Source: Phallusia mammillata (Eukaryota). Taken from it: 64,000 nt of DNA. A program made the translations under genes and the position numbers. The notes below the pieces were generated by a model that saw nothing but the letters and a program-made list of their open reading frames with translations, did no database searches and had not been told where the DNA came from. The stretch is from assembly GCA_965637545.1 (NCBI GenBank), contig OZ281498.1:11656001-11720000 (forward strand), given 5' to 3'. Shown here piece by piece: positions 13,781-64,000 of the stretch; position 1 is the first letter of the stretch; every line of letters starts with the position of its first letter.

Positions 13781-16700
13781 TCAGAGCAGTATTGGAGGCT
13801 GAGTATCAGTTGGAGTCGGGGTGGGTGTGGGACCCATTAGATCCCGTTCTTCATCTTCACCAGTTGCGCCTCTGGGCCGTGTCATGCGCCCGCACCAGTG
13901 AGCAAGGAACCAGTCACAGCAAAAACGAGGAGAACGAATCTGCTGCCCTACCGATGAGAGCGATGACGACGATGAGTTGTGCGGAGCTCTTCGACGACAG
14001 TAACAGGCAACAACCACCGAAATGGCCAGAACAACTGCTGTCAAACAACCGAAGATTACCTCGACTGCGACGAGGCTAAGAGGTGACCCGGAAGGCTGTG
14101 GTTCAGGAGGAGGTTTAGTGCAATCCATACGACTTACAGCCACTACCACACTACGTGCGTACATAGCAGGAGGACCATCACATAAGTAAGATAGAGCTCC
14201 GACCACGTCGACAAGGTCATGCTTGATTTGATGACTGATCCACGTCACCAGAGGCGCCAAGTGGCAATCGCATTGGAAGTTATTGCCCGTGAGGTCAAGA
14301 GATGTCAGAGTTTGTGAATTGTTAACCATCTCGGGTAGTAAAGTGGTCAGGTTGTTGAATGACAAGTCAATGCGCTGAATCGACGGTAAATACTGTTCAA
14401 CTGGCTTGGAAACGTAACCGATGAAGTTGCGTGTAAACAGCAGAACTTTCAAAGACTGGAGATGGGTTTCCACAAATTGGTAGGCTGAACAGTCGGCAAG
14501 ATTAAGCACTGTTAAGCGTGGGGCTTCAGCGAACACCGAGTAGTTACTGAATGCAAGTTCGCTATTTTCGTGAAGATCCAACCGTAGCAGATTGGAAAGC
14601 CCCTTCAACGAACCAGTGCTTATTTCCTAAATAAAATACAAAGTTTATAAATCTACAAAGACATAAAAGCATTTGTTTCCTGTCCGCCTTTTTACCTTGC
14701 TCGACCTTGTTGCAATATAAACAAAATGTCTTTTGATGGAAATCAAAGAGCACTTATAGTTATTTTGCAGGAACAGCTAGACCAACAATTCAACTTAATA
14801 CCCAACCAATAAGATAAATAGGCACTTGGGAATTGTAAATTACGAAACAACCACAGGCAATTGAGCGACGCCTTCCCGAAAGCAGAGGTGAGAGAAGTTT
14901 ACCAGCATATTGACCCATTTGCACCGGTTTAGAAAGGATCCACACGGCAAAACAAAGTAATACAAGGCAAAAGGCCACTCACCGTCAATTCATTCTGCGA
15001 CACATCGACGTCTGTCAGGACAGGGGCGTCGATAACAGGAAATGTGGTGAGATTGTTCCTTCTCAGAACTAGTTCGACCAGGGATGGAAAGCTCTGCTTG
15101 TGCACTATAAGCAGTCGGTTGTCCGTCAAATACAAACGCGTCAGCATTGGCGTCGATCCAAACTGCTCAGGGTAAATGACTTCCAACTCATTGTTGTTGA
15201 GATAAATTTCCTGAAAAAAGTGAAGATATTCCATTTTGCAAATCTAAGCTTAGAATTATTTGCTCTTACAATATTTTTGCTGAATTGTGAAATTTGGCCT
15301 GTTGCTGCCAGGTATAATGTATAAACGAACATGCTGTTATTGTTGCTGGAAGAGCTACATACTTGTTAATATACATCTTATATACAAACTGTTAGGAGGC
15401 CAAGTTATGTAAAAACTGACACTCCTTGGTTTAAGTCAGGGGGCGTGCAACCTTTATCACTGATAGACCAAAAAATGATTAAGCGGCGTATCACATCTTT
15501 ATGTAACACTTTTCTTGTTGTGTGTACCAACCACGCATATATTACGTTAACAACTGCCAGTAAAATTCGCGATTCTTGGCGCTATGTTAAGGCGCAGAAA
15601 AAATAGCAAAATGAGTATTAATTTGCTGTGCATAAAAATAACAACCATAATCGAGCGTTAACATTGCACTAAAATAGGTAAACAAGCTACACTTTGGTTA
15701 ATTCACTCATTTCAGTGTCTTCGTTTTGACAGTAGTTGCCTTATTACCTTATGCCATCACGAACATACAAAATTGTTGCATACGAATACTAAACAGATTT
15801 TTGCTGGTACAATTGTACGTTTATACGCCTTTGGAAAAATACGAAATTCCAAGAATCGTTTCTCTATTACGGGTTGTATCGTGAACCATACCTCGACATT
15901 TCGAAGGTCACGAAGAGCATTCGGAGCGACGTCGATAAGCAAGTTGCGGGACAAGTCAAGAGTTTTGAGGCTGCCCAGACCCAGAAGCGTTCGTTCAGTG
16001 ATCTCAGTAAGGTCGTTGCTGCCAAGACGCAGTTCAAGTAGATATGAATGTGATACGAAAGCCAGATCGTCAACCACCGCAATGGCATTATTTGACAAAT
16101 CCAAGGCAAGCAGAGACGAATTTTCACTGACGTTTCTGTAGTAGAAGGAATTCGGTTTATTTTAGGAATGCTGATTTCGAAGATAAGTGCGGTGTTGGTA
16201 TTACCACAAAGTACGTCACCTCATGGACTTTGGAATGGAAAGAGAAAATATACGTGGGCGAAGGTGTGGTATCTAGGCGGTTAATTAACATGCCCACGGC
16301 CTTACCGAGTGTCTACAAGTCAAGTTTGTTTATTTCATCATCATTTCCTGGCAACTAACAGTGCGGGTATGCGACTAAGCACACGAAACAACCGTTTCTT
16401 TCTATCGCCTTCGCTGACGTTTAGCAGTTATTTCACTTTTACTAAAACTGACAAATAATGAAGTCTAAAAACAGCAGCCATTTTTTACGTTTAAGTTGAA
16501 ATTTAAATGTCCATTGTAATATCGTGGCACTGAGTATCGTGTTGTTCAATGCAATCACGATCACAAAACAATACAGTTAAATACAAATTCCATAGGTTTA
16601 CCTATCGCAAATATAGGAAAGTGTTTTAATTAAAAAATATTAAATAATCTTACCCAACAAACAAACTTTGCTCCGATATCTTCTGCAATTTGTTAGTGGA

Positions 16701-19050
16701 TAAGTTTAGCATTCGAAGTTGCAAAAGATTTGTAAATGACCCGTCTTCGATATGTCGGAGAAATCCTTTGTTAAAATCAAGAGTGACAGCGTTAGTCAAG
16801 TTTCCCAAGAAGCTTCGTGTCAATGCTACCAGATCAGTTTGAGTCATGTTGATCTCCTGGACTGAGGACGGTATAGAAGGTGGTTGCGTTAACGGATTGT
16901 TGGACAAACATATCGACGTTAAATTGTACAGCGGGTCAAGGGCACCGGGATTGATAGATGTCAAGCCGGTCGAGCATAATTTTAAATATTTGAGCTGTTT
17001 GAGATTGGACAGGTCTGTGGAACGCAAAACATCCAAAGATGTCAATGAGAGGTCCAAGTTCACAAGCGCAGGTGGAAAAATAGCGTTTGCGGTCCCGGTA
17101 GGCGATGTTACTTTCAGCCGTCTGTTTTGTGATAGATCCAAGGATTGAAGTTGCGGGTTGCACCAACGAAATGTCGGTGTTTGGGGTTGTACGTCCAACG
17201 CAGGGTCAACAGTTTTGTTTGATGTTGCAGTAGTACGCTTTTTCCGAAAGATCAGCTGATCGTCACCATCTAAGGGTGTTTTTCCCGAGTTTACAGGTGG
17301 CACAGTTAGATTTACTTTGGTGTCTGCTTGCTGTGGTATGTGCACTGTTAATTGTGGCATCTGTCGCAAGTAACTTTTCCGCAACAAAAGCGTGGTTAGG
17401 TTTGATAATTTGACGAAACTAGCACGAGGCAAGTGGCGGCAGAAACAACGGGACATATCAAGATATCGAAGCCCTGTGAGGACGTCAAAGGTTCCATCCT
17501 CGAATCGAACCGCTCCTGATGCAAGGTTGTCGCTCATTCGCAACTCCTGCAGATTGGGGGTAGTCGAGAAACTTCGTTTTGAAAATTTTCCGATCGTGGT
17601 GTAAGCGATGTTTAGCTTTATAAGAGACGCCGGTAGTTGCTCTGCGACATAAGTGGTACATGATATATATGTATTGTTTGCCTTTACGTGGTTTTGTCGG
17701 CAGATATCCAGTTCATTTGTATAGACAATTTATTTACATATATTTATATATTTTAAGTGCAAGTAACATTTATGGTTATTGGGTGTAAAGGGAGGCAATA
17801 ACTGAAACACTTCAGCACAAAATTGAATCCTCCAAGCCACTTACCGTTAGGCATTGCCTTTATTGAGTTATGTGAGACGTCCAACTCCTGCAATTGAGTC
17901 ATTTCGTCTAAAGCAGCAGGAAAGGTGGTAAGACGGTTATAGGCGACTGACAAGAACTCAATACTGTGAGAGATTCGACGTAATTCCGTCGTTGGTAGGG
18001 ACGAGAGACGGTTTAGGGAAAGATCAAGTCGTTTCAAGTTGGATCTAAAAGCAGGGATAATGCAAGCCTAAATTAATGACATATAAAAAATTGTATTATA
18101 GCTACAAGCAGCGATCTACAAAATTGCAACTGTTCAAAAAAGTTTTGTTGGTCTATCAATATTTAAAAAGTTTTCTTTTAGTTTATACAGGAATACTTTA
18201 ACGAGTTTTCTATCCAACATACTAGAGACGATCTTACCTTCCCAAACCAACGAAAGCTTCCCCTTCAATAGAACGAATTCGGTTGCCAGTCAAACGGACA
18301 TCCGTCAACGACGTATAGCGCATGAATGCATCTCTTGCGATGTAAGATAATTTGTTGAAGTCGAGTATTAACACATCCACCTGTTAGAACATTTTTTGTG
18401 CGGTAAATTACAAGATAAAAACTTCATAAAACAAACTTGTTTTTATTATGGGTTCTATATGAAACGGTTTTTAAGCTTAAGGAGACTGTACGCCGTAACA
18501 TTACTATTGGGAACGTTTCACAATTCCATGAAGGCTTTTTTTATGATGCTTTTCATAGTTATTATAATATAGCATACGATTGTATTTCAAGTGGTGGGCT
18601 GCAGGAGCATTTTCGACTTGCAACATTAGACAATCAATAAAATACATTTTACAAAATTGTTATTATTCCAAACTTATTTGCAATTACCTTAGGCAGCGAC
18701 TTAAAAGTGTTTAGATCCCAAACAGACTAATGACAGCAGTTTATAAAACGGCGAATTTGGTTCAAATGAATTTTGATTAATATAATTACGTAGAGCAACG
18801 TGCAAACAAAAATAAAACAGTTGTTTGTTATGCATACTGAAAATAATACCACAGTATTTTTTTAACTAATATATTACCACAAATCATTCAATGCCTTGAG
18901 TCGAAATATACCTGGTAAACGTCAGGAATTGGGACAGTCGTCAGGTTGAGGCCAGTGCAATTGGCTGAACTAACTTGATCTATTTGTGTGCAAGAACATT
19001 TTTCGATACATCTATATCCACCCTCCGTCATCAGAAAATTCATCGACCAA
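13781..19050 (-). CDS. Single-pass LRR receptor (LRRNT, more than 20 LRRs, LRRCT, TM, ~70-aa tail, no TIR); first/signal-peptide exon not resolved
   Basis: Exons ~19050-18912 (CIEKCSCTQIDQVSSANCTGLNLTTVP), 18380-18238, 18044-17845, 17641-16654, 16135-15892, 15210-14983, 14626-13781, with consistent phases. LRRCT NNFQCDCHL...YLCDGP; TM LSLVAVEVIFGCLTAVVLAISVVVACYC. Confidence 0.88.
15437..15470. mobile_element. Probable MITE left-end remnant (CAGGGGGCGTGCAACC)
   Basis: hAT-like terminal sequence; a matching right end GGTTGCACACCCCTG occurs at 50203-50217; no TSD pair found. Confidence 0.4.
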
Positions 19051-40100: not shown

Positions 40101-42902
40101 GGTGACGCACGTTGTGCTATCGTCTTTCGCCTCTTCTTGCTCCTTAGATATTACCCTGTTAATGTATAGGTTAAAACCTAAAACATTGGGCATTGAAATA
40201 ACCGTGTGGTTGCGTGTCTTACAAAAAAGCGACTGAGGTTTGTTACTAAAGTAAAAGCAAATGGTACTGGAACAATTACGAAATATTTGGGTGTGGTAAT
40301 GTGATAATTGTTTTGATTTAATTATCTAAAAAAAGCGTGTTCGCCAAGTACTTTGATTGCCATTTATTGTAACCATACAAATGTCATTAACTAATCAAAC
40401 AACAAAGTTCTGACCTTGGAAATGCACAGAAGGGCAGAGTTGCAACCACTAGAAGAATTCCTGTGATGAGGTAACCCATCCACCACGCGCCAACCCATAG
40501 AGAATCTTGAGGAAGAACAGGAATGTTTGTTGTGTTTACCCAACCACTGTCCACCCATATGTTGGTCGTCAGGGATCCCAGAATAAAACCGAAAGCAGGA
40601 CCCAACAGCGATAGAGCTGAAACTACCCCTGTAAATACGGGCATTGTGACATTTTTACCATCGTTAGTACAATGGATTATACATTTGAAAACTTATGAAA
40701 CGCTACATACTCTCGGGCATTGTCGATGTTTTACGCCATAGTTCATGTCAAAAAACTTTATAGCTTGTAAAACATTGAGCTGTTGCACATTTTTACGATG
40801 GTTGCAATATGTCATCGAATTATTAGTACAGAATTTCATCACGGAAATGTAACCTACAATCGTGTATTACAGACTACCTCAACAGCCATTTAAGCCACAC
40901 AGGGTGCCTGCTGTGAAGAAAAATGCATTTAGTTGGTTGAGTGGCACTAAGCATTTTTCCTGACATCGACAAACACTTTCCAACTTCTGCCGCAAGCAGA
41001 AGGCTTTCGACAGTAATCTGCGTTCGGCGGTTACGGCTTCAAAACAATAATTTTTGAGTGGCGGGTGGGATTAGGAAACCACTGAACCAACACCGTTCAT
41101 ATTAACGTCCCAGGTGGTATATTCGCTACTTGCCGAAAATCAATGTCAATAAAACAGTTTGCGGCGTATTTGAAAATGTAGAGAGTAATTTCTGTGGCAT
41201 CTTAAAGTTTCTTTGAAAATAAAAATATTTAATGAATAGGTTGTGGGAAACTCACCAATGTAAACGGCTGAATTGCTGCATGATGCGAAGTCATCGATGA
41301 AGGACATGCCCAATGGGTGAAGTGGAGAGTGACCCATACCTTTCAAAACGCTACCGATCGCAATAAACACATACAGGAAAGAATCATCGCCAGAATCGTT
41401 GCCGGCCGTGAGTTCAGTTTTACGAAAATCCTGAATCGCAGCCCAATCCACTTCGGGCATGAGAGCAGGTTTGCAGAGCTGATTTGAACTCTGGTTTGAT
41501 AACATCAGTGAAAAATCTTCGTTTTGTTGAATCTCGGGATTACGGTCATAATCCTGATTCACCTCACTTGTACCGGCCAAGTGCAGCAGCCGAGAATTGC
41601 TTGCTTGTGACATCACGGCTTCGCTACTGTCTTGTGCGGCCCGCATCTGCGCTGACCACAACTGCAAAGTCCGCCGAAGTTTCTGGATATCAGTGATATT
41701 GGCGACGTGCCTCAGTCCTGAGAGCATCGATGTGTCGTTGCTGTTTAGAAAAGCCGTCAAGTTGCTCACAATCATGACAGTTTCGTCGCGTTGAGGTGTT
41801 TCGTCGTTTTCATATTGCCTACTATTGTCTTCGTTATTGCTTGATTGCATAGGTAATAGGTTCATGAGCACAACTTGTCTTGACAAAGCGCCATTTTTGG
41901 GTAGAGCGCGTTCAAGGTCATAGCGATCACCCACAAACTGTGGCATGCATGAGATTAAACTCGAAGCAGCCATCATCAGCGATCCAATTGCAATTGCACG
42001 AGGTCTGTTAGAGGGAAAATCAAATGAATAAAACCCTGCGTAGTGTAAACGTCAGTGCAGATAGACACTGCGCATGATTGTCTCAGCATGCGCTACATAA
42101 CTCATTTCAAATTTTGTAACCGAACCTAAGCAACAGCAAACCAACAAACCTGTGCCATTTCGACCCATAATAACTGACGAATAAAATGACGCTTAGGTTA
42201 CCGATGTGAAAACAACTTTGTAAAACTCCAATTGAAAATGTGTTAAGGCGGTATCTTCGTTCAATCGATGTCAAAGCGCTTTTGCTGTATCTATCCAAAA
42301 CAAGCGCAAGGTATTTGATGGTGGATGCACAACAATGCAGCACAGAGCACTAAACACCCGCCGGCCATATCTAATTTCGACAAGCTCGTGTTTGGTGTCT
42401 TCAAATTCTTAAACTGTAAACAACTATTGTGTTTACATAAACAGTTTTTTGTCAGAAAAACAAATGTCGTTTAAAGTTGAACTATCTTGGTAACGGTTAG
42501 AAGGCATTATGTTTAATTTTTGCATATGTGCAATAATGATTCTGGCAATCCTGAAGTCACGTTTGAAGATATAGAACGCCAATATGTAACTATAAATTGC
42601 TGATGTAAACAATATTTTAGCTGCCAAATAGTTACTTACCCACTTCCCATTACTTGAACGAGTTGCAAAAGTGACAAACAAGCCACAAATGTACGAACGC
42701 GCAGAAAAACTGGGGTTGAATTTGTGTTTCGATGCAGTTGATCTTTTCCCTTTTCCATTTTCAGTTTTGTGGAACCACACTTTTTAATGTTTTCCTCCAT
42801 CAGGTTTTTCTTCTCCGTGCAACCGTTTGTGCAACTCTGTGAGCTCACTTTTTGCGTCAACAAGTTATTTTGTTCTTGATCTAATTTACCATTTTCTTTC
42901 AT
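34103..42902 (-). CDS. SLCO: Organic anion transporting polypeptide, SLCO2-like
   Basis: Exons 42902-42640, 42290-42150, 42004-41256, 40628-40415, 40155-39617, 39192-39028, 37800-37608, 37321-37192 (Kazal: CIGSCACTDTYSPVCDVTMNITYRSACHAGC), 36921-36700, 36419-36273, 34252-34103. Motifs SLLQLVQVMGSGYSKSALTSIERRY, FVSYYG, WVGAWW, RVLAWIPAP; the TM1 sequence resembles remembered SLCO2A1/2B1. Confidence 0.92.
35528..36208. mobile_element. hAT (Buster-type) non-autonomous element, 681 bp, in the last SLCO intron
   Basis: TIR CAGGGGTGTCAAACTCG / CGAGTTTGACACCCCTG; TSD ACGTAAAT at 35520-35527 and 36209-36216. Confidence 0.92.
37841..38269. mobile_element. TAG-ended hAT-like MITE with CCGAA/TTCGG subterminal repeats
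   Basis: TIR TAGTGATGCACCGAA / TTCGGTGCATCACTA; TSD GTTTTGTA at 37833-37840 and 38270-38277; inserted ~40 nt from an SLCO splice acceptor. Confidence 0.9.
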
Positions 42903-45343: not shown

Positions 45344-46306
45344 TCACGGAGCTGTTCTTTCACAAATAGCGCGTTGATTTCTATGGCAAGAATGATCGTC
45401 CATAAGGTATTGGTTCGGGCCGATGTGTCCGCAATCCACTGGCGGACTTCCGCCCCCACTATTGTTGGGCTCACCTGATGCCCAATGTGTATTTTCCTCT
45501 GTGGCCATGACACCATCAACCCACTTCCAGCTTCCTTCAACGTCGATGTCGCTCAGACCGATCCAATAATACTGCGGCCCGTGTGGCTTTACCAAGTGCT
45601 CTATGATATCTCTAAAATTACAAAAATCTTAATTAGGAAGAAATTTAAAGTTTAGAAAAACTTTTATGTTTACAACTAACTTAAGTTTTCAAACAAAAAT
45701 CGTATTGAATATGAGAAAACTGGTACGTTGAGATTAACGTTCGTTGTACTAATTATATAATGTTTCGTGCTTGCACTAAAAATTAAACCCTCCATATACT
45801 TGCGTGTTTGTGGATCTCTCATTCCACTTGTCACCAAATCACCACCAATGGATTGACAATATGTTCTGGCTTCTTGCCATGAGCTCAGAGTGGTACGGAC
45901 GTGGTATTGCTTCAGAATTGGTTTCCAAACTGACCCTATAAAATAGTTACACATCAAACAGACATAAAGACGTATTGGGAATTAAGATTTAGTTTTTGTA
46001 CAGCCAGCCATTACCTGTTAAAGTTCGCAGTTTCTGTTCTACATTTGAGATACGTTTTGTAGATTGTATTCCAGGCTGACCCCTAGGCCCAGGCAGACCA
46101 ACATGGCCAGGTGGACCGGATGGACCCACGGGTCCCGGATTTCCTGGAGGTCCTTGCTTTCCCGGCCTTCCCTGCATTGAAGACATATTGTATGCAGGAG
46201 ATGTCCACAAAGATCTTGCAGTTTTGCAAACAAGAATTTCATCATTTTCAGCGTGAGACAACACTTTTACAACTACGTTGATTAATACCCAAATCAAAAA
46301 CTTCAT
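45344..46306 (-). CDS. Lectin A: secreted collectin (signal peptide, Cys, 12 Gly-X-Y triplets, neck, EPN C-type CRD)
   Basis: Exons 46306-46015, 45935-45800, 45611-45344 in frame; [36 protein letters not shown]; [22 protein letters not shown]. Confidence 0.92.
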
Positions 46307-46788: not shown

Positions 46789-47283
46789 CAGGGAGTCGAA
46801 CTGGAACTGAACCCGAACCCGCGAACCGGTTTGAGCGATTAATTTCATTAAAACCGAACCGAACCCGAACCGCTAATCACGATTTTCTAAAAACTCGAAC
46901 CGGAGTTGAATCCTATTTTTTGTTTGGCGTTGGACGCCGTTGGATTTTTATTTTTGTGACTTTTTTTCAAAACAGCGTACTGAAGAATACGCGAGATAAC
47001 ACTTATAGGGCGTGTCAAAAATAACAGTGCACGGTCAAAAATATTTTGGAGTTTGATAAGGCCAAGTAGATGATGGGTAGAATTAAATTGAAACGAATGA
47101 AAATTTGAACCGGTTTAAAAACCGCAAACCGGTTTGGAGCGGATAATTTGCCCAAACCGGAACAAAACCCGAACCCGAAAATATACATTTTTGAAAACCT
47201 GAACCGAACCCGAACCCTTAAAAACAAAACCAAGTGAACCCGAACCGAACTTGAACCCATATGACAAGCGATTCGATTCCCTG
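46789..47283. mobile_element. hAT-like MITE with GAACCG/GAACCC subterminal repeats
   Basis: TIR CAGGGAGTCGAA / TTCGATTCCCTG; TSD GCTGCAAC at 46781-46788 and 47284-47291. Confidence 0.88.
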
Positions 47284-47475
47284 GCTGCAACCCAACAAAA
47301 AATAAATAAATAAAACGGCGTACAAAAATTTTCTTTATAAATGCTTAGTAAGACCTAGTAAGATTTTTGCACTATTTTTAAATATTTTACAACTAATATT
47401 TAAACAAGTCTACAAAATCATGCTTTACTTTCAAGGCCTAGAACATTGTTTTCAAATCTTTGCCACGGCCTAGAA

Positions 47476-47899
47476 CAGTGGTTCCCAACCTGGGGTCTCG
47501 CGGACATTAGGGGATCCGTAGAGGCAAACAGTACAATATTTTTAAGTTTCCAAACCGTTTTTACCATCCCGCAAGAAAGTGCAGACTGTTATTAAACCTT
47601 TGGAAAAAGAAAACTTACTTTTGTATGATTGTTACATCACAACACACATGAACAATGTAACTTTTAGCGTATATTGCTTTGTTTCAAGTATTGTACACCA
47701 GAAACTGCTTCTTCGTTGCATTGACTGCTAATACAGAACTTTATTGAGATTTAAGGACTGTGGCCGTTGATTAAAATTCTGCCCAAAAAAGCGAAAATAT
47801 AATGCAGGAAACAAAAAACATAACAAGACTAAATTACTTCCGCGGACCTATAAAATTTATTAAAGGGGTCCGTGACTACAAAAAGGTTGGGAACCACTG
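47476..47899. mobile_element. hAT (Buster-type) MITE (duplicated at 48744-49167; relative at 54550-55032)
   Basis: TIR CAGTGGTTCCCAACC / GGTTGGGAACCACTG; TSD GCCTAGAA at 47468-47475 and 47900-47907. Confidence 0.92.
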
Positions 47900-47971
47900 G
47901 CCTAGAACATTGTTTTCAAATCTTTGCCACGGCCCAGAACATTGTTTTCAAATCTTTGCCAATGTCTTGAA

Positions 47972-48194
47972 CAGGGGTCAACAAACTACGGCCCGCGTGG
48001 TCATTTCTCATAAGATGAGACTAACTATACAGTTTAACAGTTGCATTCACCAGCATATCTTGACGCACCTATAAAAATCGCCTCGCAAACTAAGTTTGGA
48101 AAGACGGCACTAGGGCATGAAAACTCTGCGGCCCGCGCGAATCATTATTATTAATCTTATCCGGCCCGCAGTGAAAAAAGTTTGGTGACCCCTT
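47972..48194. mobile_element. Older hAT MITE (duplicated at 49240-49462)
   Basis: Imperfect TIR CAGGGGTCAACAAAC / GTTTGGTGACCCCTT; degenerate TSD GTCTTGAA / GCCTAGAA (6 of 8 match). Confidence 0.75.
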
Positions 48195-51100
48195 GCCTAG
48201 AACATTGTTTTCAAATCTTTTTTCTCATGCCTCAGCAATTTCATTTAAAAAAAACTTCAAAACCTTTATGCGGTGAAACAAAATCGTATTATTTCAAAAA
48301 ATCAGCTTCTTCACATTAAAAAACCTAACACAATAACAAGGTTTGAACAAAGTACAAAACCAACAGGAACCTCAAGTTGAGAAACACTGCTTTGCACACA
48401 ACTGAGCTGTATGAACTTGAAAAAAATATTTTTACGCACAGCAGGATTCAACACACACAGCTGTTGCTGAACCGAACCCGAACCCTTAAAAACAAAACCA
48501 AGTGAACCCGAACCGAACTTGAACCCATATGACAAGCGATTCGATTCCCTGGCTGCAACCCAACAGAAAATAAATAAATAAAACGGCGTACAAAAATTTT
48601 CTTTATAAATGCTTAGTAAGACCTAGTAAGATTTTTGCACTATTTTTAAATATTTTACAACTAATATTTAAACAAGTCTACAAAATCATGCTTTACTTTC
48701 AAGGCCTAGAACATTGTTTTCAAATCTTTGCCACGGCCTAGAACAGTGGTTCCCAACCTGGGGTCTCGCGGACATTAGGGGATCCGTAGAGGCAAACAGT
48801 ACAATATTTTTAAGTTTCCAAACCGTTTTTACCATCCCGCAAGAAAGTGCAGACTGTTATTAAACCTTTGGAAAAAGAAAACTTACTTTTGTATGATTGT
48901 TACATCACAACACACATGAACAATGTAACTTTTAGCGTATATTGCTTTGTTTCAAGTATTGTACACCAGAAACTGCTTCTTCGTTGCATTGACTGCTAAT
49001 ACAGAACTTTATTGAGATTTAAGGACTGTGGCCGTTGATTAAAATTCTGCCCAAAAAAGCGAAAATATAATGCAGGAAACAAAAAACATAACAAGACTAA
49101 ATTACTTCCGCGGACCTATAAAATTTATTAAAGGGGTCCGTGACTACAAAAAGGTTGGGAACCACTGGCCTAGAACATTGTTTTCAAATCTTTGCCACGG
49201 CCCAGAACATTGTTTTCAAATCTTTGCCAATGTCTTGAACAGGGATCAACAAACTACGGCCCGCGTGGTCATTTCTCATAAGATGAGACTAACTATACAG
49301 TTTAACAGTTGCATTCACCAGCATATCTTGACGCACCTATAAAAATCGCCTCGCAAACTAAGTTTGGAAAGACGGCACTAGGGCATGAAAACTCTGCGGC
49401 CCGCGCGAATCATTATTATTAATCTTATCCGGCCCGCAGTGAAAAAAGTTTGGTGACCCCTTGCCTAGAACATTGTTTTCAAATCTTTTTTCTCATGCCT
49501 CAGCAATTTCATTTAAAAAAACTTCAAAACCTTTATGCGGTGAAACAAAATCGTATTATTTCAAAAAATCAGCTTCTTCACATTAAAAACCTAACACAAT
49601 AACAAGGTTTGAACAAAGTACAAAACCAACATGAACCTCAAGTTGAGAAACACTGCTTTGCACACAACTGAGCTGTATGAACTTGAAAAAAATATTTTTA
49701 CGCACAGCAGGATTCAACACACACAGCTGTTGCCACTTCCTCAATACGCATTTTCAGCATTTAATTCTGCTGATTGTACCCGGCCAGATGTTTTAATGGT
49801 GGTGGGAGAAAGTGTCTGACTCCTCAACGACGTTGAACTAGCACACTGAAAAAAGTCGAATCTAAAATAACGTCATATGGACGTTACTCGTAGAGCTACG
49901 ATTGGTGCACCGCTACTCTACGTCATAACAATAAACAAACAACTAAAGTGACAAAATAAAACTGTGGTAAATATCATTCACTGTGGAAAATTATTAATGA
50001 TGTGCGAGAGATTCGATTTGCTCATTTTTTTGGGCGAATCAGCGGCTTTTCAAAAATAGCCGATTTGGACCAAATTACAAATATATTTTGGGATCTTGCA
50101 ACCTAAATATCGCAATAAATTTCGCGCAAAACATGTGTTTCCATCTAATTACGTAACACAAAATCTAATCTTGGCAATTGTATTTGGCCCCACAGTGACA
50201 AAGGTTGCACACCCCTGGTTTACACCATCCTCTTTTATGTGAGCCGCTATATCAGGTCTATACTCAATTAGTTTTGTGAAAGGCCCAGACAGAAAAAGTA
50301 AAAATACCAAAGGTCTGGACACTTCTGTCAATAATGCAAATGCAACATGTCTTCGCCTATTTTAGTTATAGGTAATGTGTAAAATCTTGGCCAAGATCAA
50401 CACATTTGTTTAAGCCGAATGGTTCTGTTTGCAAAACAAAAGCTTGAATTGGGCACTATACATTAAATTACTCCTCGCGAGAGTATTGACACAACGACAC
50501 ACAAAATACAGTTTATCTAGTTTGGCAGGATTACTTCGTAAGGTTATGATTCAAAATTCAGTTTATTGCGTCATAGATATATTTGTGCGCAATAAAATTT
50601 TGTTAATAATGCACTGGAATAATGGACGATTTTGTCGTCACAAAGTTGTCAATCTGGCCTTTCAAGATTTTGGAAATACTATAGGCTCCTCGCGGTACTC
50701 GGAGAATCGCTATGCGGACTCGAGTTAACTGTCGCTACATAGCAACGATCACGAAATTAACACACAATATAGCCACATCTAATACCCCAAAGGTCCGGAT
50801 AAGGACCGCGGTCCACCATTTGGGTTGCCCTGCGCTATATGCAGCCTTGCACTCATGGCTGGAAGGGAAAACGTGATTACGTCAAAACCGAACACGCCTT
50901 TGTGTGAGGCCACAAATCGTTTAGTTGTTTCGGCTTAGTTTCTTTGTCACTACTACCGATTATTCGGTTTCGTTCAGGAAAATATTTGTACATATTACTT
51001 ATTCGGTACATCACCAGAAAATATCCTAACGTCTTATCTCATTAAACAAAATGCTAGTAAATTATAATTTGTATAAATAAGACACTGAAGATGCTTGCAT

Positions 51101-51250: not shown

Positions 51251-51369
51251 GATAGGGGGCAGGAACTTGACCGAATGGTCTAGCGCGCCTGACCCATATA
51301 CAGACATAAAAAACCTGATTGAGATTCGTCCCCGGGAGTGCCCTGGGTTCGAACCCCGTGAAAAAAAAG
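51251..51369 (+). mobile_element. tRNA-derived SINE-like element, copy 1
   Basis: A-box-like TGACCGAATGGTCTAGCGCG and B-box GGGTTCGAACCC followed by an A8 tract; second copy at 63934-64000; possible short TSD GCTGACG (51244-51250 and 51370-51376). Confidence 0.65.
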
Positions 51370-51960: not shown

Positions 51961-52862
51961 TTATGGTGCAACTCTTTCGCAAATCGCACGCTGTAGTCCG
52001 CTGCAAGCATGATCATCCATTTGATAATTATAATAGTGACCAATATGCCCACAGTCAATATTTCCCCCGGTTAGCCCTGCATTATTAGGCTCCTGCGGAG
52101 CGAAATCCGTATTGTGATTGTTTGACGCCACTCCGTCAATCCATTTCCAAGTTCCCTCTCTTTCTATATCGCTCAGACCTATCCAGTAATACTCGGGACC
52201 AGCTGGTTTCACAAAATTCTCGATAATGTATCTAAAAAATATTAATTTATCCAAGTGTAAAATAGTTTTGCCTTTGAACTATTTTTTACCGGGTCACAGT
52301 GGTGCAAAAATCTCTAATAGTTTGAATTTGCAATAGCAACAAAGAATTTAATATATTTAAATGTAAATTATTGGCAACAAATATCTCTGTTAGAATCTAG
52401 AGCCCAAAATCTAGCCTATACTTTATTGCCTCGCCAAAAAATCGATTTGGTGGTTTAAATATTTCAAGCTCATACCTTCGTGTTTGTGGATCTCTCATAC
52501 CACTTGTCACCAAATCACCACCAATGGATTGACAATATGTTCTGGCTTCCTGCCATGAACTAAGAGTGGTACGAACGTGGTATTGCTTCAGAATTGGTTT
52601 CCAAACAGGCCCTTGAACAAAAACAAATCGTTTAAAGTTGTTTTAGGATTTACAATCAAATTTTATTCCTACCCGAAAAATCATTAAGTCTGCTTTCAAC
52701 ATTTTTTATTCGAGCGTCGTCATTTTTCTGAAATAAAGGCAAGCAGCCCGATTTGTGAGCGGGAACCGATTTACAAACCAGCAAATTTTCCGTTTCTCCC
52801 TGACACATCGCCGAAGATGCAAGGCAACAAACAACAAACAACCAAAATTGTACGGCATTCAT
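51961..52862 (-). CDS. Lectin B: secreted collagen-less C-type lectin (signal peptide, two Cys, neck, EPN CRD)
   Basis: Exons 52862-52673, 52611-52476, 52231-51961 in frame; same intron phases and 136-nt exon 2 as lectin A; QEPNN and MDDHAC. Confidence 0.92.
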
Positions 52863-57855: not shown

Positions 57856-58717
57856 TTATGGTGCAACTCTTTCGCAAATCGCACGCTGTGGTCGACTGCA
57901 AGCATGGTCATCCATTTTATAATTATAATAGTGACCAATATGCCCACAGTCAACATTTCCCCCGGTTAGCCCTGCATTATTGGGTTCACCTGAAGCGAAA
58001 TCCGTATTCTGACTGTTCGACGCCACTCCGTCATTCCATTTCCAAGTTCCCTCTCTTTCTATATCGCTCAGACCTATCCAATAATATTCGGCACCAGCTG
58101 GTTTCACAAAATTGTCTATAATGTATCTGAAAAACCATAATATTCATTTATTCTTTACGTAAAATCAATTTTACCTTTGAACGTTTTAGAGGTTAATGGT
58201 GCAAAATGGTGACTCTTAGTTTCAAATTTGCAACAGCAAATTCCAAGGATACATTAATATATTTGTAAATTATTGGCAGCAATATCTCTGTTGGAACCGA
58301 AACTATGCTTTTATTGTTTAGCCAAATATTTCAAGCTCATACTTGCGTGTTTGTGGATCTCTCATTCCACTTGTCACCAAATCACCACCAATGGATTGAC
58401 AATATGTTCTGGCTTCATGCCATGAGCTCAAAGTGGTACGGACGTGGTATTGCTTCAGAATTGGTTTCCAAACAGGCCCTTAAAAAACAAAAACAAATCG
58501 TTTAGAGTTGTTTTGCGATTTGCAATCCAACTTTATTTGTACCCGATAAATCATCAAGTCTGTTTTCAACAGTTTTTATTCGAGTGTCATTCGGCAAGCA
58601 GCCCGATCTGTCAGCCGGGACAGATTTACAAACCAGCAGATTTTCCTTTTCTCCTTGACATATCACCGAAGATGCCAGGCAACATACAATACACAACCAA
58701 AACTGTACGGCATTCAT
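57856..58717 (-). CDS. Lectin C: collagen-less C-type lectin, close paralog of B
   Basis: Exons 58717-58543, 58478-58343, 58126-57856 in frame; MNAVQFWLCIVCCLASSVICQGEKENLLVCKSVP; GEPNN and MDDHAC. Confidence 0.92.
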
Positions 58718-62029: not shown

Positions 62030-63844
62030 CTAAGCTGGCCATTTTCGTTCACACAAAGCGAAAAATTGTGCGGAACAAGACAGATCATCCATTTTGTACT
62101 TGTAAAGATTTCCAACGTAGGCACAATCAACATTGGATCCTCCACCAATGTTGTTTGGTTCACCACGTGAAAAATCTGTATTCTCATCGGTTTTGGCAAT
62201 TCCGTCCACCCATTTCCAGCTTTCCTCTTGTTCAATGTCGCTTAATCCAATCCAGTAGCTGTGCGTTCCCACAGGTCGTATAAGGAGATCGATGATTTTC
62301 CTGTAACAATATAGCATTTTAGTGCCGAAAATGATTATTTGGGCGTAAACATTTGTTACAAGTGAAACATGTGAAAGACCAGATTCCACTTACTGTCGAA
62401 TAACTTGATCTCTCATTCCTTCGGTAACCAAATCTCCTCCAATCGATTGACAATAAGTTCTTGCCTCCTGCCAGGTGCTCCCGACATCTCGCAAGTGGTA
62501 CTGCTTCAAAATCGGTTTTCACAAATGATCTACGAACATATATGTCACTACCACCCGTTCTGAGCAACTGACATTTCAAGCTACCATTTAAGGCAACTTT
62601 AGCCGATATTTTGACATCTTTACTACAAAATAAAAAACTTAAACTTACCGCATATAGTTTGAATACTGTTTGATGTTGCTGCATCTGGACTTCCAGGTGC
62701 TCCAGGAGGACCTTGACGTCCATCTAATCCAGCAACACCGGGAGGACCCCTTTTACCTGGTGGACCTCTTATTGGCAAACTTGAATTTTATTACTACTTC
62801 AGACGACAGTCCGAAGACTGAAAACAGTCCTTTGTCGTGTCACCATACGAGAAATAAACGTATTTTCAGATAAAGGGTAGTCGATAATAATAGTAAACAA
62901 AAGAGGAAAAGCGAACGAAAGAGGTTAAATGTCAATAGATCGGCAGCAGAAATCAAAATCTATTGCACGCATGCAGATATTTGTGAACGGCATGGAATAA
63001 TGACAGTGTGTGAGCGTCTGTTAAATCAGGATGACCAAATAGCATGAAACGAATAATTGCACCAGGAGAAAGACTGGAAAGAAATGATGCGTTGAACTTA
63101 GCGTTTTCTGTCAGAATATTCGAAACAGTAGAGAACAAAATTGTGCGAGGACGAACCAATAGTGGACAGTTAAGAAACAAATGTTGCGTGGTTTCTACGG
63201 CCTGACATGCACAAGGGCGAAAGTGCCTGGGATTGATATAGAACTTTGTGAAATTGAACGAGAGAGTGAACGTTGCGACGAACACGGAGGGTTGTCAAAC
63301 CAAGGTCCTGTAATATTTTATCATATGAGGTGGTCCTCATACACCCTAAAATTAGTTTAGCCGATTGGTGTTGCACATTTTCTAGTACTTCACAGTCAGA
63401 GAGGTTACAGTTATCGAATAAAATATCGCCATATTCAAGTGTAGGAAGAACGCAGGACCTATAAAGGGTAAGGATGATATGCCGGGAGACTGTGTTAGAT
63501 ATTTTGCGCAATCGGTTAACTTGGATTTGTGCTTTGTGGCATATGTAGCGAATGTGGTCGTGCCAAGAAAGTGTTGGTGTAAATATAAGGCCGAGATATG
63601 TGTGTGCACGGGTTTCAGGCAAAGCTACACCTTTGAAAAAAAATTGAGGAAGATTGAAACTTTTACAAAGCGATAGTACTTTAGATTTGGAGGAAACGAA
63701 ACTTGAATTTGCAGGTGAAGATTTCCAAAACGATCGTGCAGACTTACATACAAGCAACTCGTCTGTTTGGCAAGAGTTTGAAGCAACCTGACAGACGAAC
63801 ACAAGCAACACAAACCACATAAGTTTACTTGTTTGTTTCAGCAT
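62030..63844 (-). pseudogene. Lectin D: collectin pseudogene (LINE insertion in exon 1, TGA in exon 2)
   Basis: Exon 1 is split into 63844-63699 and 62776-62649 (GPPGKRGPPGVAGLDGRQGPPGAPGSP); exon 2 62529-62394 has TGA at 62521-62519 where paralogs have Trp (VWKP); exon 3 62300-62030 is intact (GEPNN, MDDLSC). Confidence 0.9.
62789..63698 (-). mobile_element. 5'-truncated non-LTR retrotransposon (CR1/L2/Crack-like ORF2 C-terminus)
   Basis: HTYLGLIF..LSWHDHI, LYRSCVLPTLEYG, LENVQ, LRVRR, then in another frame CACQAVETTQHLFLNCP...MLFG...CNRF; 12-bp TSD (plus strand AAACTTGAATTT) at 62777-62788 and 63699-63710. Confidence 0.92.
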
Positions 63845-63928
63845 TTTGAAGAAAACCCTACAGACACTGCAATCAACCGTTGTGCAAAACTTGCATTTCC
63901 ATATGTTTGCTGGTTGCAAAAAAACCTG

Positions 63929-63933
<5 letters not shown>

Positions 63934-63961
<28 letters not shown>

Positions 63962-64000
63962 CACGGGGTTCGAACCCAGGACACTCCCGGGGACGAATCC
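63934..64000 (-). mobile_element. tRNA-derived SINE-like element, copy 2 (runs off the window end)
   Basis: The reverse complement GATTCGTCCCCGGGAGTGTCCTGGGTTCGAACCCCGTG followed by A28 matches 51323-51368. Confidence 0.75.

Follow-up and report, generated by a model that had tools for sequence, protein, structure and literature searches.

Gene D, encoded on the minus strand at one end of the window (the whole stretch of DNA that was analysed, 64,000 nucleotides), is composed of three exons with a C-type lectin domain spread across exons 2 and 3, and its splice sites are still intact. Exon 1 is interrupted by a LINE copy, and further lectin paralogs (A, B and C) lie in the same window. Features are given below by window position.

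62030-62299, minus: D exon 3, frame intact, C-type lectin domain carrying an EPN motif (Lectin_C PF00059, E 4e-10)
62393-62529, minus: D exon 2, with a nonsense TGA at 62521-62519 where paralog E has TGG (Trp) in the D/E alignment
62650-62776, minus: 3' part of D exon 1, coding for nine Gly-X-Y triplets and including the donor site (border taken from a spliced E contig)
62777-62788, minus: target-site duplication, downstream copy, 12 bp (exact repeat)
62787-62792, minus: AATAAA, formed where the element tail runs into the target-site duplication (from the sequence)
62789-63698, minus: LINE copy, 5'-truncated, internally deleted, in sense (3' part of ORF2, 3' UTR and a short tail; assigned by matches to the genome family)
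63170-63844, minus: chimeric open frame of 224 aa, stop TAA at 63172-63170 (translation from the ATG at 63844)
63235-63242, minus: join of a private 323-bp deletion, with an imperfect 8-bp microhomology (323-column alignment gap)
63694-63698, minus: five extra bases at the junction, without counterpart in the LINE family (the best copies align only from insert base 6)
63699-63710, minus: 12-bp target-site duplication, upstream copy (present once in paralog E)
63699-63844, minus: 5' part of D exon 1, 48 codons from the ATG, for a predicted signal peptide and a Cys-containing N-terminus (translation)
63925-64000 (to about 64102), minus: SINE-like repeat, absent from E, with one internal and one terminal poly-A tract and flanked by a 15-bp repeat
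45345-46305: lectin paralog A, with a collagen stretch, frame looks open
51961-52852: lectin paralog B, without collagen, frame looks open
57856-58716: lectin paralog C, without collagen, frame looks open

The 5' part of D exon 1, which differs from E by 3 substitutions in 146 bp, ends in the upstream copy of the target-site duplication, and the hydropathy peak of the encoded N-terminus was located at residues 7-19. The collagen-like stretch scored just below the cut-off for PF01391 (E 7e-6, 26.1 bits against 27.2), and exon 3 is 93% identical to that of E. The TGA is the fourth codon of exon 2, ahead of the lectin domain; it was found together with the 3' junction of the LINE insert on one contig with 0 differences in 4/4 runs. 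The SINE-like repeat lies 80 bp upstream of the D ATG, is very abundant, runs about 100 bp past the window and has at least 57 matches in the genome (G000; best 40 of 1656 candidates scored). No tRNA gene was called over it; by resemblance it may be of tRNA origin. A second copy is found near 51256-51368, and some copies stand in tandem arrays, e.g. at C5:8096433-8096940.

Paralog E (G000:C5:11728741-11729601, minus strand) lies 10.7 kb from D, beyond the window, is free of the LINE and has open exons arranged as in D; the two are 87% identical over 761 bp and about 95% identical in exons. Paralog F (G000:C5, about 11726134-11727028, minus strand) is a lectin of the B/C kind without collagen and is broken twice, its exon 1 being frameshifted and its exon 3 carrying a stop. 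C plus D aligns with F plus E as a tandem-duplicated unit, and the finding that D and F are both broken suggests reciprocal loss after duplication of the two-gene unit. Between D and E, pS is 0.108 and pN 0.032, and because of this ratio of 0.30 (p 0.001), which gene conversion could distort, both coding sequences were likely constrained for much of their history. Exon 2 is nearly identical (94–97%) in the four paralogs A, B, C and F, which hints at gene conversion. To judge from the predicted proteins, the host gene belongs to a collectin-like family: gene E, and D before its lesions, resemble invertebrate and ascidian collectins and MBL-like lectins in having a signal peptide, a Cys-containing N-terminus, Gly-X-Y triplets and a lectin domain with EPN, as described in the available portion of PMC5465252, and differ from the collectins treated there in having only nine Gly-X-Y triplets. 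A homolog search with D exon 3 returned one weak fish match among 24 candidates.

The element in exon 1 is flanked by an exact 12-bp direct repeat, AAATTCAAGTTT on the minus strand, with copies at 63710-63699 and 62788-62777 that enclose 910 bp. This is the sole pair of exact 12-mers spaced 900–950 bp apart in the window, and the same 12-mer is present once at the matching place in LINE-free E. Sequencing data were available as assembled contigs, which can show presence and not absence and include no raw RNA reads. A contig bridges the 3' junction with 0 differences over 383–390 bp in 4/4 runs examined (3 studies; one run may be the assembly's own sample), so the insertion is real and no assembly error. 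The 5' junction was bridged in run X3 only, with 12 differences, among the matches listed. The initial annotation of a 910-bp LINE piece between 12-bp repeats was thus borne out by the exact repeats and, at the 3' junction, by the contigs of the 4 runs; the annotation had passed over the exon-2 stop, the twin gene E outside the window and the SINE-like insertion upstream. As expected for a non-LTR retrotransposon insertion, the copy shows a target-site duplication, 5' truncation, an intact 3' end and an A-rich tail, and it belongs to a dispersed family with endonuclease and reverse transcriptase. Because the insertion is present in all 4 runs (3 studies), it may be fixed or common in the species, a state to which drift or selection could each lead.

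The D insert has at least 63 genome matches including itself, and among the best 40 of 64 candidates scored the closest other copies are 95–97% identical. In a full-length relative, ORF2 is 1070 aa long, with Exo_endo_phos (endonuclease) and RVT_1 domains, and is preceded by an ORF of 275 aa. From the ORF layout and the short-repeat tail, the LINE may be of the CR1/L2 group. One full-length copy (L041:677-4731, G000:C3) has both ORF1 and ORF2 open. Young copies are 0.1–1.3% apart, and contigs of the family occur in runs guessed to be RNA, for which reasons the family is likely still active. The D copy starts at ORF2 residue 718, past the FADD motif at residue 677, and has lost a 323-bp stretch that is kept by 22/22 fetched loci with both halves (overlapping loci counted). 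Its tail is short and resembles those of the older copies L061 and L062; the tail type of the element is (TAA)n/A-rich, and AATAAA is present in the tail of 24/30 other copy ends. The assembly holds no near-identical copy of the insert, and the direct source element was not seen: in a search for it the best other copies reached 95% (37/37 candidates scored) and 93% over the full query (20/20), and the D-type 3' motif occurs once in G000. A splice-site scan of the insert with a simple pattern found no consensus donor and one acceptor-like site, at 63074.

Translation from the ATG at 63844 gives 48 codons of the lectin, 3 at the junction, about 151 of ORF2 (residues about 718–868, without the reverse-transcriptase active site) and 22 that are out of frame. 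The length of 224 aa and the stop at 63170 that had been annotated initially were reproduced; the final 22 codons, read as ORF2 in that annotation, are out of the ORF2 frame, since the private 323-bp deletion moves the chimera out of it and thereby brings in the stop. The extra bases at the 5' truncation (63694-63698) set the reading frame. The other two frames of the inserted ORF2 stretch contain 14 and 6 stops; a sense insertion has a 1-in-3 chance of landing in the ORF2 frame, which is open by descent, and no selection is needed to account for the long frame. The chimera matched no family in Pfam and no relative in the PDB (best E 1.2), and its look-alikes in the Atlas were only clusters of RT-associated hypothetical proteins. 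The encoded fragment is basic, contains 10 cysteines, lacks any complete domain and, judged by these features, would likely misfold if it were translated.

For analysis of selection, the insert was compared with nine young LINE copies (0.1–1.3% apart), from which it differs at 32 sites. In the ORF2 frame before the deletion 15 synonymous (S) and 5 non-synonymous (N) differences were counted (pN/pS 0.10, p 2e-6), and in the ORF2 frame after the deletion, which the chimera does not read, 7 S and 2 N (pN/pS 0.09). Differences common to at least one of 39 other copies, mostly older ones, make up 23/32 (19 S, 2 N, 2 UTR) and are therefore ancestral states that changed later in the active lineage. 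Private to the D insert are 5 N, 3 S and 1 UTR changes, which amount to about 1% of its length; those in the frame of the chimera are 4 N to 1 S (pN/pS 1.2, p 1.0). When a difference had to be common to at least two copies to be set aside, the counts were 5 N to 6 S over all ORF2 columns (0.26, p 0.025) and, in the frame read by the chimera, 4 N to 3 S (0.41, p 0.21). The in-frame private counts fit neutrality and are too small to exclude weak constraint. A reading of the low pN/pS as selection on the chimera was rejected on account of the equal ratio past the deletion and of the polarisation with older copies; the alignment of copies indicates that the value of 0.10 stems from the LINE's own lineage. 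As a rough estimate, the insertion would fall late in the history of D, because about 1–1.3% private change is small beside the roughly 5% of synonymous change that each lineage has gathered since D and E parted.

In run X8 (kind unrecorded), contigs with E letters were joined at both intron borders and across the LINE site, so E is transcribed and spliced in that sample. At sites that distinguish D from E these contigs were E-type in 13/13 cases in exon 3 and 11/11 upstream, and in exon 2 in 4 against 5 expected; one E contig reaches 199 nt further upstream, past the point of the SINE-like repeat in D. Runs X8, X12, X14 and X18 yielded no D-type and no D-LINE-junction contig, X8 being the only one that covers the lectin exons and contigs being unable to show absence; the LINE contigs in these four runs are of the undeleted family type. 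No RNA run carrying D was among the matches listed, which is no evidence of silence. The AATAAA that had been annotated at the LINE 3' junction (62792-62787) is present as the element's usual tail and sits 137 nt before the exon-1 donor. It is the only AATAAA or ATTAAA between the D ATG and stop, in a window where AATAAA occurs at 1.2 per kb per strand.

D-type and E-type contigs coexist in 4/4 runs. A joint from 62776 to 63699 in a contig of run X4, taken as a candidate empty allele, was rejected as paralog E because its differences match those of E: within 62467-62776 there are 30 substitutions and 17 gap letters (E: 29 and 17), and a further 2 differences lie upstream (E: 2). No D-type empty joint was among the contigs listed in the 4 runs, and contigs cannot show absence. 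The X3 contig over the 5' junction carries, among its 12 differences, young-family letters at four sites, and contigs of X1 and X4 have some D letters, 7 differences and a 1-base insertion behind 63542. These mixed contigs (X1, X3 and X4, window 63451-63761) may be gene-converted D alleles, sister copies or assembly mosaics.

Very probably, D is a pseudogene left by tandem duplication, with the LINE, the exon-2 stop and an intact twin E as its marks and the fusion as a chance by-product. The exon-2 stop and the intact twin 10.7 kb away are the reasons for this assignment: D combines disabling lesions in its coding sequence with an intact paralog of the same exon structure, two features expected of a duplicated pseudogene. 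Some points tell against the reading: exon 3 and the splice sites of D remain undamaged, the insertion is found in every one of the 4 runs, the private counts leave room for weak constraint, and the assembly showed no near-identical source copy. The null allele, which had been offered initially as the fallback, is thus supported beyond what was proposed, by an independent nonsense codon and by E. Removal of the LINE and one repeat, which had been annotated initially as restoring the frame of exon 1, would not restore the gene, given the second, independent lesion TGG>TGA at 62521-62519 in exon 2. The following course of events would account for the locus. A unit of a lectin and a collectin gene was duplicated in tandem, as seen in the similarity of the two units, presumably as the earliest step, and during most of the period that followed, purifying selection would have acted on both D and E (pN/pS 0.30). 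An active LINE would have entered in sense by target-primed reverse transcription, to which the target-site duplication, truncation and tail point; its target was probably a redundant or already dead duplicate, and its in-frame landing would be the one-in-three chance given above. The 323 bp would have been lost from the copy at insertion or later, and D would also have gained the Trp>stop change and the upstream SINE-like insertion, in any order relative to the LINE. A premature stop well ahead of a splice junction marks an mRNA for decay. The D pre-mRNA would most likely be spliced, because 137 nt separate the candidate poly(A) site from the donor behind it, where U1 would suppress cleavage; the spliced D mRNA would carry its premature stop 520 nt ahead of the first junction and is a predicted decay target, and E would likely supply the lectin.

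It is unlikely that D is instead transcribed and cleaved at the LINE AATAAA to give an unspliced mRNA that evades decay and yields a functionless 224-aa fragment, which would probably be degraded in the ER. The frame is open, the hexamer has no other AATAAA/ATTAAA for company between ATG and stop, and TE-derived poly(A) signals truncate immune genes elsewhere (PMC13709765, in the part seen). Against such cleavage stand the common occurrence of AATAAA in the window, the SINE-like insertion within the upstream stretch covered by E transcripts, and the position of the site ahead of a 5' splice site: the available part of PMC5499120 reports for human, mouse and fly that U1 keeps transcripts from being cleaved prematurely, and by analogy this suppression would extend to the present animal. 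Very unlikely is the further reading of D as a signal-peptide trap, in which its promoter and signal peptide export a 200-residue piece of the C-terminal region of ORF2 from an unspliced mRNA that the tail of the LINE itself terminates, the allele having spread through the species; if it were true, D would be a secreted LINE-ORF2-derived protein near birth, freed by the backup copy E. The secreted chimera that had been proposed initially found no positive support, with no sign of selection after insertion and with an AATAAA that is an ordinary tail 137 nt before the donor.

That the chimera is a co-opted secreted protein under selection, for which the exon-2 stop would be harmless as exon 2 lies outside the mRNA, is highly improbable. 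The junction in 4/4 runs and the raw pN/pS of 0.10 against the young family (0.26–0.41 after stricter polarisation) speak for it, but the ratio is equally low outside the chimera frame and is built on sites common to older copies, and the fragment is without the catalytic core and minus 323 bp. The 1-base insertion in X1 and X4 and the 12-difference X3 contig, if they represent D alleles, mean moreover that the frame is not conserved. Misassembly, or an E haplotype left uncollapsed, has a practically negligible chance of accounting for the insertion or for D as a whole: the exons are about 95% alike and X3 alone bridges the 5' junction among the matches listed, with 12 differences, yet D-type and E-type contigs stand side by side in 4/4 runs, the 3' junction is matched with 0 differences in all of them, and the two genes, both on one 28-Mb contig, differ in their neighbours and in the insertions upstream of them.

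Exonic LINE and SINE insertions are known to inactivate genes, with target-site duplications of 4–20 bp, in the portion of PMC4859970 available. D is like these knockouts in its target-site duplication within the size range, 5' truncation, A-rich tail and location in a coding exon, and unlike them, as far as that portion goes, in being a redundant tandem duplicate with a second nonsense codon and in carrying an element that is not L1 and has a (TAA)n/A-rich tail. LINE-host fusions include Lyosin (L1 ORF1-MYL4), L1-RFX5, NUP42-L1 and BCNT p97 with ORF2; the excerpted text of PMC12129022 describes them as old, species-conserved and mostly under purifying selection, with Lyosin shown to be expressed. 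The D frame shares with them LINE coding sequence in frame with host exons, a likeness in layout only, expression and selection being the evidence that defines such fusions; in contrast to the fusions covered there, it was joined by direct exon insertion and not by splicing, and it has about 1% private change. The conservation of ORF2 fusions is stated to be still to be worked out, with BCNT p97 named as one case (PMC12129022, same excerpt). Should the D chimera prove to be expressed and secreted, it would count as a rare host fusion derived from ORF2. Immune-gene isoforms that end at a TE-derived poly(A) signal are represented by IL18R1-Short and soluble PD-L1 in the accessible part of PMC13709765; as in these, a LINE gives a candidate poly(A) signal inside an immune gene, but the isoforms described there keep the ligand-binding domain, whereas D would lose collagen and lectin with 48 host residues left. 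A literature search made without the organism name, in main texts only, did not find this locus.

On this reading the locus represents birth and death in an innate-immune lectin cluster, in which a unit of two genes was doubled and each gene now has one broken copy (D by the LINE and a stop, F by a frameshift and a stop). It also carries two warnings on method: a LINE copy compared with its young family can look selected (pN/pS 0.10) through the history of the element, and a paralog can mimic an empty allele. Elsewhere in the window, 47199-49733 contains a tandem duplication of about 1269 bp with 99.6% identity, which is very recent or an assembly duplication, and long open frames are present on the minus strand at 13784-17729 and 41149-42051, which read like leucine-rich-repeat receptor exons and an organic-anion-transporter exon.
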